Shown piece by piece: positions 9,958-36,605 of a DNA stretch of 64,000 nucleotides (its first letter is position 1; each line of letters opens with the position of its first letter). Origin of the DNA: Thermoproteota archaeon (GTDB lineage Archaea; Korarchaeota; Korarchaeia; Korarchaeales; Korarchaeaceae); contig JAOZFI010000006.1 of NCBI GenBank assembly GCA_027491395.1, positions 1 through 64,000 on the forward strand, in the 5' to 3' direction. A model generated the notes under the pieces. That model was not told the origin of the DNA, made no database searches, and worked only from the letters and a program-made list of their open reading frames with translations. Position numbers and translations under genes: made by a program.

Positions 9958-10690
9958 GCGCGACGATTACAGCATTCCCCTTTTTCTACAGGCCTCCAGA
10001 GCCCTTTCCCACCTGTCCTTCCTTCCGTAGCTCTCGAGTTACTCGAATACCTCATCAGCAGCTCTCCCCTCAACCCGGAGCTCCTTATTACGCCCAAAAT
10101 CCAGTTAAGGTTCTTCTTACCGTCAAGGTAGGCGATCATGGACCTCTTGACGTAGTTTATGGAGGCCCTAGCCAGCTCTCCTGGGTACTCCTTACCCTCC
10201 GATCTAGTCGCCTGTGCTCTTACCTTCTTTTTCCTCTCCTTTGGCTTCCCCTCACCCATCTCCTTCATCTTCAAGTAGAGATCCCTGAGGGTCATGGGCT
10301 CCTCGTATCTCCTGCATACCTCCTCATTGGGTACCACTATCCACACCTCCTTGAACCCCTCCCTATGCGCTGGTTTCCTGCTTTTCTTCCCTGTCTCGAC
10401 CTCTATTCCTATTCCTTCAATCATCAGATCGACATCCGCCCACCTTTCCACCTTCAATCCAAGCTTTCGGGCTAAGAGGACTATCTCCTCGATCATCAGC
10501 TTGTGAAGGTGATTCTCCGAATCGGAAGAAAGCTCGTAATACACGACTTTCCTTCCATGATGATCAATGAGCTCTGTCTTCACCACCTAGCCCTTGTTGA
10601 GGAGCCCCCTCAGGTATGTAAGAACGGCAAACTTCGTCCTGCTTACGTCGGTCCCATACTTTTCAGCGATAGCCATAGCTATCGAGGAGT
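9954..10690 (-). pseudogene. Decayed gene: wHTH fragment followed by PD-(D/E)xK-like domain (mobile-element-type)
   Basis: H..MIEEI...DVDLMIEGIGIEVETG motif. In-frame upstream segment SSIAMAIAEKYG...LRGLLNKG* is separated by TAG 10587-10589. A frameshifted natural-looking C-terminus reads EVFE*LESYGRKDRWERALEACRKRGML. Confidence 0.55.
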
Positions 10691-10919: not shown

Positions 10920-11156
10920 TTAGCAGTCCCTCTCCAATAGTTCGAAGTACTTTTCTCTGGTAAGCCCCGCCTCGGCCATTATAACCCTTATAAGTCCGGG
11001 CTTAAGCTTCTTTCCAGGGTGTACGGGTACTACTATCCTGACGTGTTGCTCATTCACTAGTATCACGTGGGAGCCTCTTTGCCGTATAGGTTTGAATCCA
11101 AGCTTACTAAGTATCTTAATGAGCTTATAAGGATCTATGGGTGTTATTTTAGGCAA
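10920..11156 (-). CDS. hicA: HicA family toxin (intact)
   Basis: LGF..IRQRGSHVIL...VVPVHPG...L.PG motif. Confidence 0.92.
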   Translation of the reverse strand: MPKITPIDPYKLIKILSKLGFKPIRQRGSHVILVNEQHVRIVVPVHPGKKLKPGLIRVIMAEAGLTREKYFELLERDC

Positions 11157-11385
11157 CGGCTTTCACTCTCTGAAGACCTACCACCCTACGGCTTAACAGT
11201 TCCTTCTTTTCCTCCTCAGAGAGTGTTTCGAGGTATAGCTCAATTGCTTCCCTAACATTACTGATCACCTCATCTAGACTATCGCCTTGGGTATGGCATC
11301 CAGGGAGTTCCGGGACGATCGCGACGTATCCTCCGCCCTCATCCTCCAATATAATAACACTAAACTCGCGAATCCTCCTGTCCAT
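11149..11385 (-). CDS. hicB: HicB family antitoxin (copy 2)
   Basis: GGYVAIVPELPGCHTQGDSLDE motif; overlaps hicA. Confidence 0.92.
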   Translation of the reverse strand: MDRRIREFSVIILEDEGGGYVAIVPELPGCHTQGDSLDEVISNVREAIELYLETLSEEEKKELLSRRVVGLQRVKAVA

Positions 11386-13221: not shown

Positions 13222-13821
13222 TTAGGGATAGGGTGCGTTATTTTTTAATAATTGTTGGGCAGCAACCTTTGGATAATATATTCTCAGCACTATGTCTGTC
13301 AAAAGAAGCATGAGTATCATCGCTACACCGTCCTCCCTCTTCATCCCATATCTATGATTGAAAACGCGATAGAAGTAGATGAAGGATAGAGTCGAGAAGG
13401 AAGTATCGATTAGCGCCTTGATTGATGAGTATAGCTCGATACTAGATGCTCCTATAATGGGAAGAAGCACCAGATCCGTTATCAGTGATATAGACGAAAA
13501 GAGAAAGTAAAAAGACACAACACCCAGTATTGGGGAGAGTGGGCCCTTATACACGCTTCTATAAAACAAGAAGAGGTAAGTTAGTGCTCCCAGCAGGCCC
13601 CAGAGTAGGGCTCCGGTGAAGCTGCTTCCTAACAACACAAAATATGCGATAACATATGGGGGAATGGATTGATTGGCTACACCCAGCTCGTTCAGGACGA
13701 TCATTAGGTACAAGGATTGAGTACCCGTGTAGAGCAGGTATAGGAGAAGGGGCCTTCTCCTATTGGATGGAGGGTTATTGTTAAGCAGATCCGGATTTTC
13801 TTCTCTTCTACGTATGGCCAT
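13222..13821 (-). CDS. Multi-pass membrane protein (possibly Yip1-like), last gene of peptide cluster 2
   Basis: About 5 TM segments; overlaps the SpoIIM gene. Confidence 0.6.
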   Translation of the reverse strand: MAIRRREENPDLLNNNPPSNRRRPLLLYLLYTGTQSLYLMIVLNELGVANQSIPPYVIAYFVLLGSSFTGALLWGLLGALTYLFLFYRSVYKGPLSPILGVVSFYFLFSSISLITDLVLLPIIGASSIELYSSIKALIDTSFSTLSFIYFYRVFNHRYGMKREDGVAMILMLLLTDIVLRIYYPKVAAQQLLKNNAPYP

Positions 13822-14341
13822 TTAACTTCACCAAGATGCAAGGTATTGAGAGATAATATTCTATAACTGATGATGATATTATCATAATTAAACTTAATAA
13901 CGCTAATTTTGTTAAATAAACTAAATGATCTCTGGAGAGGTCGTAGGGATCCCCGCCATGGATTACCGTTACGGCGCTCGAAAGACCTACGGATGAGGAT
14001 ATGAGGATGGAGGTGATCTCCAGCGGCCCGTGGAATAGAAAGCAGGGGAGTGCACCTGTCAAGTTTTCTCTGAGAATTTCCCTAAAGATGCTACCTACCA
14101 CCATGCCGTTGAAGCTAAGGGAGAGAGCCGTGAGCGTTCCAAGTGTCACATACCCTATGGAAAGAATCAGGATAACGGAACTGTTCAAGAGGATAAGTCC
14201 GCGTAAATTATAATGTCCATTAAAGGGATGAGGAACAAAAACTCCACCTGACCCTTCCGTGTAAGATTGATCTGGGATCAGGAAGCTTCCTAAGATCCCG
14301 GCCGCATAGAAGAGCGATGCTAAGATCAGTCCCTCACTCAT
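13808..14341 (-). CDS. SpoIIM/DUF95 family membrane protein
   Basis: LILLN, FNGMVVG, HGPLEI and C-terminal 'SSVIE' motifs. Confidence 0.88.
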   Translation of the reverse strand: MSEGLILASLFYAAGILGSFLIPDQSYTEGSGGVFVPHPFNGHYNLRGLILLNSSVILILSIGYVTLGTLTALSLSFNGMVVGSIFREILRENLTGALPCFLFHGPLEITSILISSSVGLSSAVTVIHGGDPYDLSRDHLVYLTKLALLSLIMIISSSVIEYYLSIPCILVKLNGHT

Positions 14342-15305
14342 CCTCGGGCCTTGTTTCGTCCCTACCATGGCTCATCCTCCTGATGATCTCTATTCTCTTC
14401 TCCAAGCTAGGATGCGTTGGAAGTAGGGAGGGGGTTTCCTTCATTCCATATATTTTGATCAGAGCGTTTATCAGATCCTCTGGATTTGAGTAAGATGCTG
14501 CAATGAGATCGGCCTTCACCTCCCTCCTCCTTATCAGGATTAAGAAGACCGACAACGCTGCCAAGAAGCCAGTCACCACTAGCAGAAAGCTTACGGGATC
14601 GCGTGTCGTTACTGTCCCCGTTAAGGAGGAGAGTACTTCGCCTACAAGGAGTAGCATCGCGTACATCAGTAGTGTGTAGCCCAGATACCTGACGATGTCT
14701 CCTTCTTTATAATGGGCGAGCTCGTGGGCCAACACGCTCTTGATCTCTCCATTAGACAGCACCTTAAGCAGATCCTCATTTACGAAGACAGTTGGTTGAA
14801 TGATTCCCCCAAGAAGCGTAGTTTTCATTAGAGAGGATCTGAATAATCGGAGCCTTATATCCTTCCTGATCCCCATCTTTCCCTTAAGATCCTCGAAAAC
14901 CCTCTTCAGATCATCTGGGGGATCCTTTCCTTGACCAATCTTATCGAAAATTAAGGGAACCAGATTAACCGTGACGAACAGTACTACGAGAAAAGTGGAG
15001 AATTCGACTAGGATGCTGTGGCTGGGAAGTGAGGAGATTACAGCAGCATAGATGAAGATTAGATATAAATCGAAGTAATTGAGCAGGAGATCCTTGAATA
15101 ATCTCCTAGTTCCCGGGCTTTCCTTACTCAGAATAGAGTCCATAAGAGAGAGAATTATGGCAGTTAGTATCAAGATTACGAATCCAGTTATAAGAGGGTT
15201 AAGCCCATAATTAACCACGATGAATACACTAAGGGACATCATAGCTATGGCTATGAGAGCCATCACCAAGTTGTAAAGAGAAAAAAATGTAGGATTAGTT
15301 CTCAA
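14334..15305 (-). CDS. M48/HtpX-like membrane zinc metallopeptidase
   Basis: E.KSVLAHELAHY, RRREVKAD, THPSLEKRI motifs; 4 N-terminal TM segments. Confidence 0.9.
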   Translation of the reverse strand: MRTNPTFFSLYNLVMALIAIAMMSLSVFIVVNYGLNPLITGFVILILTAIILSLMDSILSKESPGTRRLFKDLLLNYFDLYLIFIYAAVISSLPSHSILVEFSTFLVVLFVTVNLVPLIFDKIGQGKDPPDDLKRVFEDLKGKMGIRKDIRLRLFRSSLMKTTLLGGIIQPTVFVNEDLLKVLSNGEIKSVLAHELAHYKEGDIVRYLGYTLLMYAMLLLVGEVLSSLTGTVTTRDPVSFLLVVTGFLAALSVFLILIRRREVKADLIAASYSNPEDLINALIKIYGMKETPSLLPTHPSLEKRIEIIRRMSHGRDETRPEDE

Positions 15306-15315
15306 TACAGATCCC

Positions 15316-15561
15316 TTACCCTATTAGGAAACTACCTACTGCTACAAGAGCGCCGGCTAAACCCGTAATTGGAGTACTGCATGCTGCTATTTTTGCTAGG
15401 GCTAAGAAGTACCCTCCTAGTGCCACTGCAGCTGCTCCATAATTACCTCTAGCAAGTAGATAGCCTACTCCCAACTGAGTTGCTGCAGGTGTTAATATAG
15501 GAAGTACCAATATTGCTATATTGAGGGCGAGAAGGGCTAGGGCTTTCTTTTCTGCCTCCAT
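15316..15561 (-). CDS. Small hydrophobic peptide precursor (putative circular bacteriocin/archaeocin precursor 2)
   Basis: 81 aa, Ala/Gly/Leu-rich, ends in Gly. SD GGGGTGAT and AT-rich TATA-like TTTTATAA upstream. First gene of the peptidase-SpoIIM operon. Confidence 0.75.
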   Translation of the reverse strand: MEAEKKALALLALNIAILVLPILTPAATQLGVGYLLARGNYGAAAVALGGYFLALAKIAACSTPITGLAGALVAVGSFLIG

Positions 15562-15922
15562 TTCATCACCCCCTGAGGATATTATTCTCTTAATTTGGGA
15601 AATATTATAAAAATATTGCGCGTAATCTACCTTTTTTATAAAAAAGGAAGAACACTGAAAAATTTGAAGATGACAGCATCCTTAGGGTAGAATCATCTGT
15701 CTAGATTTCAACAGAAGTGGGTATGCTAAATTGATTCAAGTGAGAAGGTTCTATTTTATGAGATTCTAGGAGGACTCTCATGAGGCATTTAAGCTAGAGA
15801 TAGTTGCTGCCAATCGACTAAAAGGTTCTACATTGAAATATTAATCCCAATTAATTAGATTCGGTTTATGCTCCCCTTATCAGTCAAAATCTCCCAATCT
15901 CCAATAGCTAATCGATTTTTCA

Positions 15923-16240
15923 CACCTAGCCTCTGTTGAGGAGCCTCCTCAGGTAGTTAGGACGACGAACTTTGTTCTGTTGATATCGATCCCATACTTA
16001 TCGGCAATGGCCCTAGCTATCGAGGAGGTATTCTAATACCGTTCTCCGCTAAAAGGCGTAGGATCTCTCCTGCGTAGTCTACACTGGTCTTGGTGGACTC
16101 CCTATGTCCTCTATAGGATCTTCGAGGAGTTTCTGCCGAAAATACCCTGATCGCATCTACTATGGGTGTCTCAACTACCTCGCTCAGCCTCTTAACGTAA
16201 TGAAGTCCTGAGCGGAGGTCAGGGAAGCCCCACCGTAGAG
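15923..16240 (-). pseudogene. Second fragment of the wHTH-containing gene seen at 10584-10690
   Basis: DYAGEILRLLAENG / SSIARAIADKYGIDINRTKFVVL / YLRRLLNRG*; DNA similar to 10584-10689. Confidence 0.55.
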
Positions 16241-16289: not shown

Positions 16290-17267
16290 TCACCTTTCCC
16301 TTGACCTCCTAACCGCTCTACTCCTAAGCCTTCCCACCTCTTCCTCCGGAATGTACCACCTGCCAGCCAGCTTGACCGCCTTCAAGTACCCCTTCCTAGC
16401 AAGCTGCCCCAAGTAGTCGACGCTCATCCCAAGCTCCTTGGCCGCCGTCGATAGGAGAACCATGCCCTCCAGCGATCCCAGGTAGAGGGTCAGGCTCTCG
16501 TCCACCGCCCTCGCCACGAGGTTAGTTATGGGTCTGGCCCTTCCCCTGTCGGCCTCCTCCAAAGCCATGTAGTAGGCCCTCCGCCTCTCCTTCCTTATGA
16601 TGGCCAGTGGGTAGCCCCGTCTCAACAGGAGGAGGTTCATCAGGAGCCTGGCCACCCTCCCGTTCCCATCGGTGAAGGGGTGTATGGCCGTGAGGTAGGC
16701 GTGGGCCACGGCAGCCAGCTCGATCGGATGGAGTTCATCGGAATTCATGGCGCCGTTCAACCAATCAACGAACCTCCTCATCAATCCCGGTACTTCCGAG
16801 GGAGGGGGAGGTACGTGACCCGATCCACCGATGAAGACCTGTTCCCTCCTGTACTCGCCCGGTCTCGCTTCCCATATTCCCATCATCACGAGGTGGTGCA
16901 GCTTGAGTAGGTCGAACTCCTCCACCCTCTCAGCGCGAGAGAGATCCTCCACGTACCTCAGAGCTTGAAGGTGGTTCCTAGCCTCCAAATGATCTCTCAG
17001 GGGCTTTCCTGCTACAGTTATACCCTCCTCTAGCACGAGCCTCGTCTCCCTGAGGGTGAGGATGTTCCCCTCTATGGCGTTAGTGTTGTAGACGTACTCT
17101 ATCGTCAGGAGGTTCCTCAGCCTAGCTAGGGCCTCTCTGCTGAGCGGACGCTCGGAGCTGATTCTCTTGAATCCCTCCTCTATCCTCGCCATGAGCGCCG
17201 GGGCTATCAGCGGGGACCTAGCTTGTTCCAGCAGGAGAAACCTGTATCGACTAATCATGCTTTCCAT
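16290..17267 (-). CDS. Fic family protein (class II, N-terminal inhibitory motif) with C-terminal HTH
   Basis: HPFTDGNGRVAR catalytic motif, TNAIEGN inhibitory motif, C-terminal excisionase-like HTH (AAKELG...AVKLAGRWYI). Confidence 0.93.
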   Translation of the reverse strand: MESMISRYRFLLLEQARSPLIAPALMARIEEGFKRISSERPLSREALARLRNLLTIEYVYNTNAIEGNILTLRETRLVLEEGITVAGKPLRDHLEARNHLQALRYVEDLSRAERVEEFDLLKLHHLVMMGIWEARPGEYRREQVFIGGSGHVPPPPSEVPGLMRRFVDWLNGAMNSDELHPIELAAVAHAYLTAIHPFTDGNGRVARLLMNLLLLRRGYPLAIIRKERRRAYYMALEEADRGRARPITNLVARAVDESLTLYLGSLEGMVLLSTAAKELGMSVDYLGQLARKGYLKAVKLAGRWYIPEEEVGRLRSRAVRRSRER

Positions 17268-36495: not shown

Positions 36496-36605
36496 TGGCG
36501 CCGGGGGTGGGATTCGAACCCACGAGGCCCGTGAGGGCCACCGGATCTCGAGTCCGGCCCCTTGCTTCGCCGGGCGCTTGGGCCCTCTGGCTAGGGTACC
36601 CCGGC
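36496..36605 (-). tRNA. tRNA-Ser (CGA) with 21-nt non-canonical D-loop intron (36566-36586)
   Basis: Long variable arm, anticodon loop CTCGAGA, G73, CCA. Removing the intron restores D-loop AGCCAGGCA. Confidence 0.88.

Follow-up and report, generated by a model that had tools for sequence, protein, structure and literature searches.

A four-gene SpoIIM cassette with an M48 peptidase and a candidate circular-bacteriocin-type precursor in a Thermoproteota archaeon

Gene content and organisation of the operon

The DNA analysed here is a window of 64,000 nucleotides (nt) at the start of contig JAOZFI010000006.1 in the genome of a Thermoproteota archaeon (assembly GCA_027491395.1), and its subject is a four-gene operon that may represent an archaeal relative of the SpoIIM cassettes of circular bacteriocins, supplemented with an M48 peptidase. 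All coordinates are positions in this window, and the operon is read on the minus strand, from 15561 down to 13222.

The listing of open reading frames (ORFs) places four minus-strand genes in a single tight operon (15561-13222). It opens with an ATG-initiated gene for a peptide of 81 amino acids (aa), rich in Ala, Gly and Leu (15316-15561), which is the candidate precursor. After a gap of 10 nt follows a TTG-initiated gene for a 323-aa zinc metallopeptidase of the M48 family, HtpX/BlaR1-like (14334-15305; Pfam PF01435 and PF05569), whose end overlaps by 35 nt the gene for a 186-aa short paralog of SpoIIM/DUF95 (13808-14368; PF01944). A second overlap, of 14 nt, couples the end of the SpoIIM gene to that of a 199-aa membrane protein, delineated by its ORF and by hydropathy, with about five transmembrane (TM) segments (13222-13821). 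A simple hydropathy scan registered approximately three hydrophobic segments in the peptide, four plus two in the peptidase and about five in the 199-aa protein.

A putative promoter and ribosome-binding region, read from the sequence, lies upstream of the peptide gene on the same strand (15566-15613). It comprises a Shine-Dalgarno-like run, GGGGGTGA, at 15573-15566, 4 nt ahead of the ATG, and a box, TTTTTATAAT, at about 15613-15603, approximately 45 nt upstream of it. Similar elements are present in G002, a sister genome within the genus, where the TTTTTATAAT box is identical, a similar G-run, GGGGGCGA, stands a few bases before the start, and the surrounding bases differ.

All four genes recur, in unchanged order, in the sister genome, with protein identities of 93% for the peptide, 90% for M48, about 95% for SpoIIM and 95% for the 199-aa protein. 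The ratios of non-synonymous to synonymous substitution rates (dN/dS) between the two copies, calculated by the Nei-Gojobori method, are 0.11, 0.24, 0.22 and 0.15 in the same order, which indicates purifying selection on each of the genes. In the peptide gene, the differences amount to 19 synonymous and 7 non-synonymous changes. On account of its conservation in the sister genome and its dN/dS of 0.11, the peptide ORF is a conserved coding gene rather than a chance frame.

Neither the ORF listing nor Pfam revealed an ATP-binding cassette (ABC) transporter gene in the four-gene operon, and the nearest ABC genes, at 2361-4390, are about 9 kb away and belong to another cassette (876-4390). An earlier note on this DNA, made from the letters alone, had described the same coupled gene set, a TATA box and a Shine-Dalgarno element proper to the 81-aa gene, and the lack of a transporter; the ORF listing, Pfam and the TTTTTATAAT and GGGGGTGA elements agree with it on each of these points.

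A small family of hydrophobic peptides

The first 27 residues of the peptide consist of an EKK-bearing start followed by about 18 hydrophobic residues, two prolines among them, and have the look of a signal-type leader. Residues 28-81 form the putative core of 54 aa, which terminates at an invariant Gly81 and contains two basic and no acidic residues, with a grand average of hydropathy (GRAVY) of 1.21, an isoelectric point (pI) of 9.1 and a charge of +2; the strong hydrophobicity and the two basic residues noticed earlier are thus confirmed.

Among 5.8 billion clustered proteins, the peptide family comprises four members of 79-81 aa, the three relatives being 93, 79 and 60% identical to the peptide of the window. 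Invariant in all four are E4, K5, K6, P21, P25 and T28, the block A37-x-G39-N40-Y41-G42-A43-A44-A45, and further along the chain K57, S62-T63-P64, G76-S77-F78 and G81. A small-x-small signal-peptidase site conserved across the four members was not found on reading the alignment by eye.

The 81-aa protein belongs to no Pfam family and matches no NCBIfam model. In the criteria used for circular bacteriocin clusters (PMC13289728), a coding sequence of less than 100 aa beside SpoIIM is identified as the precursor by models such as PF12173, its relatives and TIGR03651; none of these recognises the 81-aa protein. The five peptides of other cassettes gave nothing relevant against Pfam at E<=10. A search of language-model features, conducted with the peptide alone and without its genomic context, placed three circular-bacteriocin families within the top five sets, with scores of 0.86 for PF16942 (carnocyclin type), 0.85 for PF12173 and 0.85 for PF09221 (circularin/uberolysin type). 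These neighbours are taken as a lead only, though a pointed one.

Structure prediction with AlphaFold2 (AF2) returned, for the full-length peptide and a shallow alignment of 4 rows, helices at residues 2-37, 41-62 and 64-80 with a mean predicted local distance difference test (pLDDT) of 72. For the core alone, with an alignment of 2 rows, it returned a hairpin of helices 3-32 and 37-53 with a pLDDT of 68. Foldseek matched the full-length model to no entry of the PDB at E<=0.001. A wide VIA-align search with the core model reached a best Z of 7.0 with generic helical hairpins and listed no circular bacteriocin, a result that excludes nothing. When the sequences of solved structures were searched with the peptide, the 103-aa peptide of the other cassette and SpoIIM, nothing or one chance-level match was obtained, and no viral contig matched the alignments of the peptide or of M48.

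A membrane metallopeptidase related to HtpX and BlaR1

The 323-aa protein is assigned to Peptidase_M48 (PF01435) with an E-value of 5.8e-22 and 78.9 bits against a cut-off of 20.3, and it also matches M56/BlaR1 (PF05569, 3.6e-09) over residues 115-218. Its HELAH motif occupies residues 194-198, a third ligand-type Glu lies at 262, and H194, E195, H198 and E262 are invariant in the four subfamily members compared. The Pfam score, the HExxH motif and the downstream Glu together place the protein in the M48 family with a zinc site complete in sequence. By hydropathy, four N-terminal TM segments precede HELAH, and two further TM segments separate it from Glu262. Against the HtpX equivalog models of NCBIfam, however, the protein scored 29-41 bits where the cut-offs are 245-422 (at best 40.7 against 341), and it is not HtpX in that strict sense.

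In HtpX the active site faces the cytoplasm. A cytoplasmic site is also predicted for this M48, whose basic loop 62-72 is placed inside. Metallopeptidases work through an activated water molecule and form no covalent acyl-enzyme intermediate; M48 is therefore a poor candidate for closing a ring and a reasonable one for cutting. The earlier note had put forward the protease as a leader peptidase or a transpeptidase. Removal of a leader remains plausible and finds a parallel in what has been proposed for the bacterial circular bacteriocin altitudin S, whereas a transpeptidase role is chemically unlikely for a metallopeptidase. A predicted complex of M48 with the peptide scored 0.01 against a mark of 0.32 and is counted neither way.

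The subfamily is small. Eight relatives, 54-90% identical, were recovered from the 5.8 billion proteins, and a scan of genomes and metagenomes with the M48 alignment found only three close loci, the remaining matches having at most 44% identity over short stretches and, at the best metagenome locus, 31% at best over a long match. The closest bacterial relatives found are of the BlaR1 type, and in Paenibacillus, where one locus (L035) was read, the distant relatives are BlaR1 proteins beside a BlaI-like repressor. In five bacterial genomes reached through distant M48 matches, which are a poor proxy for altitudin S-type clusters, no M48 match shared a contig with SpoIIM. When 12 cassette proteins were compared by phmmer with every ORF of loci L030-L101, SpoIIM turned up in L030 and L032 alone.

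The SpoIIM paralog and its multi-TM partner

The 186-aa protein is a member of the SpoIIM family (PF01944, 6.6e-12, 46.1 bits against a cut-off of 26.9) and bears the HGPLEI motif at residues 113-118. Across ten cassette SpoIIMs, only N62, G72, E117 and E170 are invariant, and the His of HGxxE is kept in eight. In published work (PMC13289728; PMC13463998, in the portions drawn on here), SpoIIM/PF01944 is the gene by which clusters of circular bacteriocins are defined, and the operon has a SpoIIM/DUF95 gene in its interior, overlapping both neighbours.

The archaeal genome under study (G000) encodes three SpoIIM proteins, namely one long RDD-SpoIIM fusion and two short forms, both of them in the window. 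The long form, of approximately 475 aa, occurs in 18 of the 21 genomes of the genus. In G000 it lies at 2860-4239 of locus L029 (G000:C28), where an RDD-like N-terminal domain is fused to SpoIIM. In another genome (G003:C16:106201-108119), a Yip1-family gene is located about 0.9 kb upstream of the long SpoIIM, and the pairing of Yip1 with SpoIIM may also exist for a housekeeping pair.

The 199-aa protein belongs to no Pfam family. A hydrophilic N-terminus precedes its TM segments, and its three relatives are 95, 68 and 53% identical. Its language-model neighbours point to Yip1, at a score of 0.92, in a cluster of which 39% of the members carry PF04893, and its number of TM segments is in keeping with that family, so that it may be Yip1-like.

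SpoIIM cassettes across the genus

Short SpoIIM genes were counted at 12 loci in 4 of the 21 genomes (two in G000, four in G002, five in G004 and one in G020). Four further short frames (G005, G011, G012 and G014), which score like the long form and sit on small contigs, are outside this count. Small hydrophobic ORFs of 61-136 aa are found near each short SpoIIM locus, mostly directly upstream and in several cases with signal-like N-termini, and most loci also encode a multi-TM protein of 190-250 aa. The genus therefore presents the features of the archaeal SpoIIM cassettes, i.e. a short paralog accompanied by small, fast-evolving multi-TM proteins in variable islands. According to hhalign, the peptides of different cassette types have no detectable similarity, the only related pairs being A with A, the C and D peptides (56%) and the C and D membrane proteins (95.8%). 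Mutually unrelated peptides, together with one cassette bearing an ABC transporter, are the pattern of fast-evolving conflict loci.

The four-gene operon of the window constitutes type E, of which a copy diverged to 60-67% exists at G004:C57, in tandem with another cassette. Type F (G004:C18) consists of three small TM proteins, SpoIIM and then M48. Altogether, SpoIIM adjoins a member of the M48 subfamily in four of the six loci examined (G000, G002, G004:C57 and G004:C18) and in two gene orders. Furthermore, each of the four members of the 199-aa family comes from a genome, or is matched by size to a contig, that also holds a member of the M48 subfamily. The co-occurrence of M48 and SpoIIM in archaea, which the earlier note had proposed to test together with a short hydrophobic ORF, is seen at these four loci and is not obligatory, as the peptidase of G008 is without SpoIIM and none lies downstream of that of G020. 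The link between M48 and SpoIIM is real but facultative.

In G030, which belongs to a different genus of this family, the end of a short SpoIIM gene overlaps with the gene for an Rce1-like/CPBP protease (PF02517, 2.2e-10). A protease of a different family beside SpoIIM therefore suggests that a membrane metalloprotease is a recurrent module of these cassettes, and it seems to be an exchangeable one.

Other cassettes add to the variety of these loci. The first cluster of the window (type A, 876-4390, plus strand) encodes, besides a 103-aa peptide and SpoIIM, a TM protein of 188 aa and an ABC transporter made up of an ATPase and two permeases. Its SpoIIM (PF01944, 1.6e-15) is without the His of HGxxE, and the cassette is conserved in G002. 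At G004:C25, the gene order starts with the transporter, and a 102-aa peptide matches the 103-aa peptide of the window with an hhalign probability of 99.6%. In the type B cassette (L104, G002:C6, 2888-6436), a His-rich hydrophobic peptide of 94 aa and a TM protein of 136 aa are encoded together with a 207-aa SpoIIM. Diverging from these are genes for a TM protein of 208 aa and for a large membrane protein of 456 aa with a weak 12TM_1 match (0.0026); the 456-aa protein is reminiscent of the "large membrane protein" found in the circular bacteriocin clusters of bacteria. At the tandem locus (L027, G004:C57, 1179-5172), the first cassette has M48, inside which the contig ends, SpoIIM and a 186-aa protein, and the second, on the same strand, consists of small TM ORFs of 91, 102 and 111 aa, a 172-aa SpoIIM and a 237-aa TM protein. 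The locus with the CPBP protease (L139, G030:C21, 5532-7391) begins with a 99-aa TM protein ahead of the 177-aa SpoIIM and the overlapping protease; a 164-aa membrane protein with HELAH and no Pfam match lies on the opposite strand, and membrane proteins of 281, 108 and 486 aa come next.

The surrounding genomic island

The operon is situated in a region where the guanine-cytosine (GC) content falls to 0.44-0.48, across about 8 to 16 kb of the window; the island value is 0.44, compared with about 0.55 in later parts of the window. The cassette is an accessory element, island-borne and sporadic in its distribution. A look through sequencing runs listed no RNA run with this DNA and three DNA runs with small shares (0.13-0.20). 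Around it are genes of toxin-antitoxin type (4795-5593; 7406-7663; 10920-11385; 16290-17267), namely a HEPN gene paired with one for a nucleotidyltransferase, a solitary HicB, HicA together with HicB, and a Fic/DOC protein that bears a helix-turn-helix at its C-terminus.

An imperfect direct repeat of about 106 nt (10584-10689 and 15923-16027; 78-85% identity, 5.3 kb apart) lies on either side of HicAB, some small ORFs and the operon. In minus-strand reading, the repeat resembles the 3' end of a small gene and the GTG start of the next one, with a 1-nt shift in the upstream copy, and the pair may be the scar of an insertion or a duplication. A tRNA-Met gene (8442-8517) is followed by a free-standing 366-aa LAGLIDADG-type protein (8857-9957). 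The 3' end of a 23S rRNA gene, cut at the window edge, occupies 1-681, directly ahead of the type A cassette, and an archaeal RNase P RNA lies at 6646-6932. ARAGORN also reported a tRNA-Ser (cga) at 36496-36583, which is absent from the Rfam scan at gathering thresholds.

Proposed mode of action

The interpretation that we tentatively prefer, with somewhat less than even confidence, is that the operon represents an archaeal form of the circular-bacteriocin-type SpoIIM cassette, one that includes M48, and that its 81-aa product is processed. In favour of this stand the tight operon under purifying selection, the SpoIIM gene, the parallel with the altitudin S cluster, the language-model neighbours of the peptide, the leader and core lengths, the unrelated small peptides across the cassettes of the genus, the recurrence of a membrane metalloprotease beside SpoIIM and the island setting. 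The product would be a precursor, brought to the membrane by its hydrophobic, signal-like leader of about 27 residues. There it would be cut by M48, most likely for the removal of the leader near the invariant P25-x-x-T28; less likely, the peptidase would destroy stray peptide and in this manner provide immunity to the producer. Of these two roles, that of cutter is somewhat favoured over protection. SpoIIM, with its N62, E117 and E170, and the five-TM partner of 199 aa would handle the 54-aa core at the membrane and release it, with no ATP-driven exporter involved, and the released product would target the membranes of competitors.

Cyclisation itself appears doubtful; if it occurs, the ring would possibly be closed between T28, or a neighbouring residue, and the invariant C-terminal Gly81. 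The stronger proposition, that this is the first archaeal system for head-to-tail cyclised peptides and a minimal one, in which M48, SpoIIM and the five-TM partner suffice without an ATPase to cut, close and release the 54-aa core, strikes us as unlikely; in that case the exchangeable protease slot, occupied by M48 here and by the Rce1-like/CPBP protease in G030, would mark the leader-removal step. Cleavage and its site, cyclisation, export and antimicrobial activity, that is, every biochemical step, we infer from the sequences.

Several observations weigh against this interpretation. A profile of the peptide family retrieved only its own members from 1.84 billion representatives, and the core, the 81-aa protein and two homologs found no circular-bacteriocin precursor model in Pfam at E<=10. 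The language-model scores of the peptide are below the 0.9 mark of the tool, and the 121-148 features shared are fewer than is typical for true family members. The AF2 models are of modest confidence and consist of long helices or a hairpin, with no compact bundle of 4-5 helices. A signal-like leader would put P25-T28 on the outer face of the membrane, opposite the predicted cytoplasmic site of M48. The operon is without ABC transporter, ATPase or large membrane protein, according to the ORF listing and Pfam. As regards the 199-aa partner, the PF04893 hidden Markov model (HMM) matches two other genes of the genome and misses this protein at E<=10, and an hhalign comparison with 23 Yip1 proteins gave a probability of 1.1% (E 0.048, 91 columns); for the partners in two other cassette types it rises to 24%. 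The M48 of G008, 55-56% identical, stands alone between unrelated genes with no SpoIIM or peptide gene, and in G020 a 75% identical fragment, inside which the contig ends, is followed by a 604-aa soluble protein and no SpoIIM downstream. Finally, everything is founded on a handful of closely related sequences from metagenome-assembled genomes.

Alternative explanations

The operon might instead encode a membrane complex with no antimicrobial role, in which SpoIIM, the 199-aa protein and the small 3-TM protein would be stable subunits and M48 a protease for quality control or assembly, like HtpX. Similar archaeal cassettes (arCOG01996) have been read as a remodelling, vesicle or membrane-associated system in the parts of two publications relevant here (PMC5898192, PMC4158269). 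The peptide has three hydrophobic segments, which AF2 models as long TM-like helices, and the M48/SpoIIM cassette at G004:C18 has 113-aa 3-TM proteins with a charged loop and no obvious leader. Moreover, the long SpoIIM, which every SpoIIM-bearing genome of the genus possesses and which is the RDD fusion in G000, points to roles of this family other than bacteriocin production. A housekeeping function is however difficult to reconcile with an occurrence in 4 of 21 genomes and with the complete turnover of small proteins between cassettes. The ABC exporter in the sister cassette, the bacteriocins among the language-model neighbours of the peptide, and the Bacillus cluster in which, as far as its published description goes, the same gene set yields a proven secreted circular peptide, all speak against this reading, so that we consider the membrane complex the main rival but an unlikely explanation.

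The role of M48 is open to other accounts, which start from the peptide as a hazard or from the peptidase as an outsider. The 81-aa protein could be a linear membrane toxin or addiction peptide, with M48 giving immunity by degrading it, or the cassette could serve only for resistance to the peptide of a neighbour. The predicted cytoplasm-facing site of M48 would suit the clearing of mislocalised peptide, no exporter is encoded in the operon, and genes of toxin-antitoxin type (HicAB, HEPN/nucleotidyltransferase, Fic) surround it; the Rce1-like/CPBP protease takes the slot beside SpoIIM in G030. Pfam names the PF02517 family "CAAX protease self-immunity", and Abi proteins confer immunity to bacteriocins, in class II loci by way of such proteases. 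Nevertheless, the peptide gene comes first, with the strongest ribosome-binding site and the lowest dN/dS, as befits a product more than a hazard; the leader-like N-terminus with invariant P21, P25 and T28 suggests a defined processing, and SpoIIM and the 199-aa protein would be left without a role, which makes this account distinctly improbable. That M48 is a fellow traveller, or a sensor-protease of BlaR1 type for which the 81-aa protein is no substrate, would accord with the M56/BlaR1 match over residues 115-218, with the BlaR1 nature of the distant Paenibacillus relatives, and with the G008 and G020 peptidases that have no SpoIIM as a neighbour. Yet the ORF listing and Pfam show neither a BlaI-like repressor nor an extracellular sensor domain, the 10-nt gap and 35-nt overlap that tie M48 to the peptide and SpoIIM genes are the same in G000 and G002, M48 stands beside SpoIIM in two gene orders, all members of the 199-aa family come from genomes, or from contigs of matching size, with an M48 of the subfamily, and the published bacterial clusters provide an independent precedent for M48 in such a setting. 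The chance of a mere fellow traveller therefore appears slim. The earlier note had itself named a pilin subunit as one identity of the short ORF that would overturn its proposal. The N-terminus (EKK-A / LALL...) would then be a class III signal, which a prepilin peptidase would remove ahead of assembly into a filament, and a K-[A]-L-[A/I] arrangement, read by eye, does precede the hydrophobic helix in three of the four members, the fourth having Ser, while AF2 predicts a long N-terminal helix at residues 2-37. The rest of the protein is however as hydrophobic as its N-terminus, with no soluble domain; no pilus ATPase, platform protein or prepilin peptidase is encoded in the operon by the ORF listing and Pfam, and SpoIIM cassettes hold unrelated small proteins in the position of the peptide. 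A pilin is thus very improbable.

Relation to known systems

The interest of the operon as a circular-bacteriocin-type cassette depends on which of these accounts holds. If the peptide were a resident membrane subunit, the operon would be an ordinary variant of a known, uncharacterised cassette. If it were processed and cyclised, the class of circular peptides would extend to archaea, the archaeal "dark matter" SpoIIM cassettes of 2014-15 would gain a concrete biochemical function, and heat-stable archaeal proteins could be used to solve the chemistry of circular bacteriocin cyclisation. The four-gene cassette would offer a stripped-down, probably thermostable system in which a step could be assigned to each protein. 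A literature search found no described circular peptide from archaea, its coverage leaving out a 2019 mBio survey and supplementary tables, in which a prior mention is possible.

The closest archaeal counterparts are the arCOG01996 cassettes of the euryarchaeal "dark matter islands", described as groups of three to four genes in which a SpoIIM paralog is joined by a protein of the Yip1 family and by small 3-TM proteins that evolve fast, some of the groups carrying a SalXY-type ABC transporter (PMC5898192, PMC4158269). Makarova et al. (2014/2015) considered for them membrane remodelling, vesicle formation or a novel membrane-associated defence (PMC4158269, PMC5898192). The operon shares with these cassettes, as presented in the main texts, the short SpoIIM paralog, the small multi-TM proteins, a larger protein (about 200 aa, 4-5 TM segments) and the sporadic, island-borne occurrence, and the presence of an ABC exporter in some of them recalls the sister cassette at 876-4390. 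They come from Archaeoglobi, Methanococci and Thermococci, whereas the present operon belongs to a Thermoproteota archaeon; the main texts, apart from their supplementary tables, mention no protease and draw no link to circular bacteriocins, whereas M48 is present here.

As a peptidase, M48 resembles HtpX, Ste24 and BlaR1 in having HExxH after a TM segment and the third Glu after a further TM pair. It differs from HtpX in its four N-terminal TM segments instead of two and in scores far under the equivalog cut-offs, and from BlaR1 in the lack of a sensor domain and in a subfamily that is tiny and accessory. The CPBP/Abi proteases (Rce1-like, PF02517) are comparable as membrane metalloproteases in a small-peptide locus, in G030 beside SpoIIM, but their fold and family are distinct from M48. 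A precedent for the processing of a small secreted peptide precursor by an enzyme of this kind is Ste24, which acts on the yeast a-factor, in the portions of the reports used here (PMC2134828, PMC2148179).

Among the circular bacteriocins, the enzymes that remove the leader and close the ring are described as still unknown (PMC13463998; bioRxiv 10.1101/2025.10.31.685828). In the parts of these works considered, DUF95 is implicated in leader cleavage and has been proposed for both leader removal and ring closure, and bacterial clusters normally have an ATP-binding/ABC gene and usually a large membrane protein (PMC13463998). Subgroup II members have leaders of 22-35 residues, cores of about 58 and a pI of 4-10 (bioRxiv 10.1101/2025.10.31.685828). 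Measured against these published ranges, the resemblance to low-charge group II bacteriocins put forward in the earlier note, the group of the gassericin A/acidocin B type, stands for the general properties, i.e. a short core, low charge, high hydrophobicity and a DUF95 gene, the leader of about 27 aa and core of 54 aa being near the ranges. It does not extend to the protein itself, as there is no similarity in sequence or to a precursor HMM, and a hairpin is predicted instead of the compact four-helix globule; furthermore, the known members are bacterial and have ATPase/ABC genes.

The nearest parallel in gene content is altitudin S of Bacillus altitudinis ECC22, reported in November 2025. 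According to the portions of the preprint on which we draw, its precursor of 132 aa comprises a leader of 56 and a core of 76, the L1-W76 ring junction has been demonstrated by tandem mass spectrometry (MS/MS), and its cluster contains the precursor, an adjacent M48, a YIP1-family protein, SpoIIM and an ABC transporter (bioRxiv 10.1101/2025.10.31.685828). M48 is conserved in all altitudin S homolog clusters, in Bacillales, and was suggested there, without proof, to process the precursor (bioRxiv 10.1101/2025.10.31.685828). The two systems differ in that the one is bacterial and has an ABC transporter, while the other is archaeal and has none. The altitudin S core is moreover cationic and of low hydrophobicity (pI about 11, +13), as opposed to the +2, pI 9.1 and GRAVY 1.21 of the archaeal core, which falls outside the ranges of the altitudin S-type subgroup (pI 10.3-11, +7 to +13, GRAVY -0.18 to 0.27). 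The Leu-Trp junction of altitudin S contrasts with the C-terminal Gly of the archaeal peptide, a further point against the preferred interpretation. The likeness is one of gene content. Within these bounds, the same gene set is known from Bacillus, and the idea of processing by M48 is already in print for bacteria; in both cases a precursor gene is followed by M48, here 10 nt after the stop codon, and is accompanied by SpoIIM/DUF95 and a small multi-TM protein.

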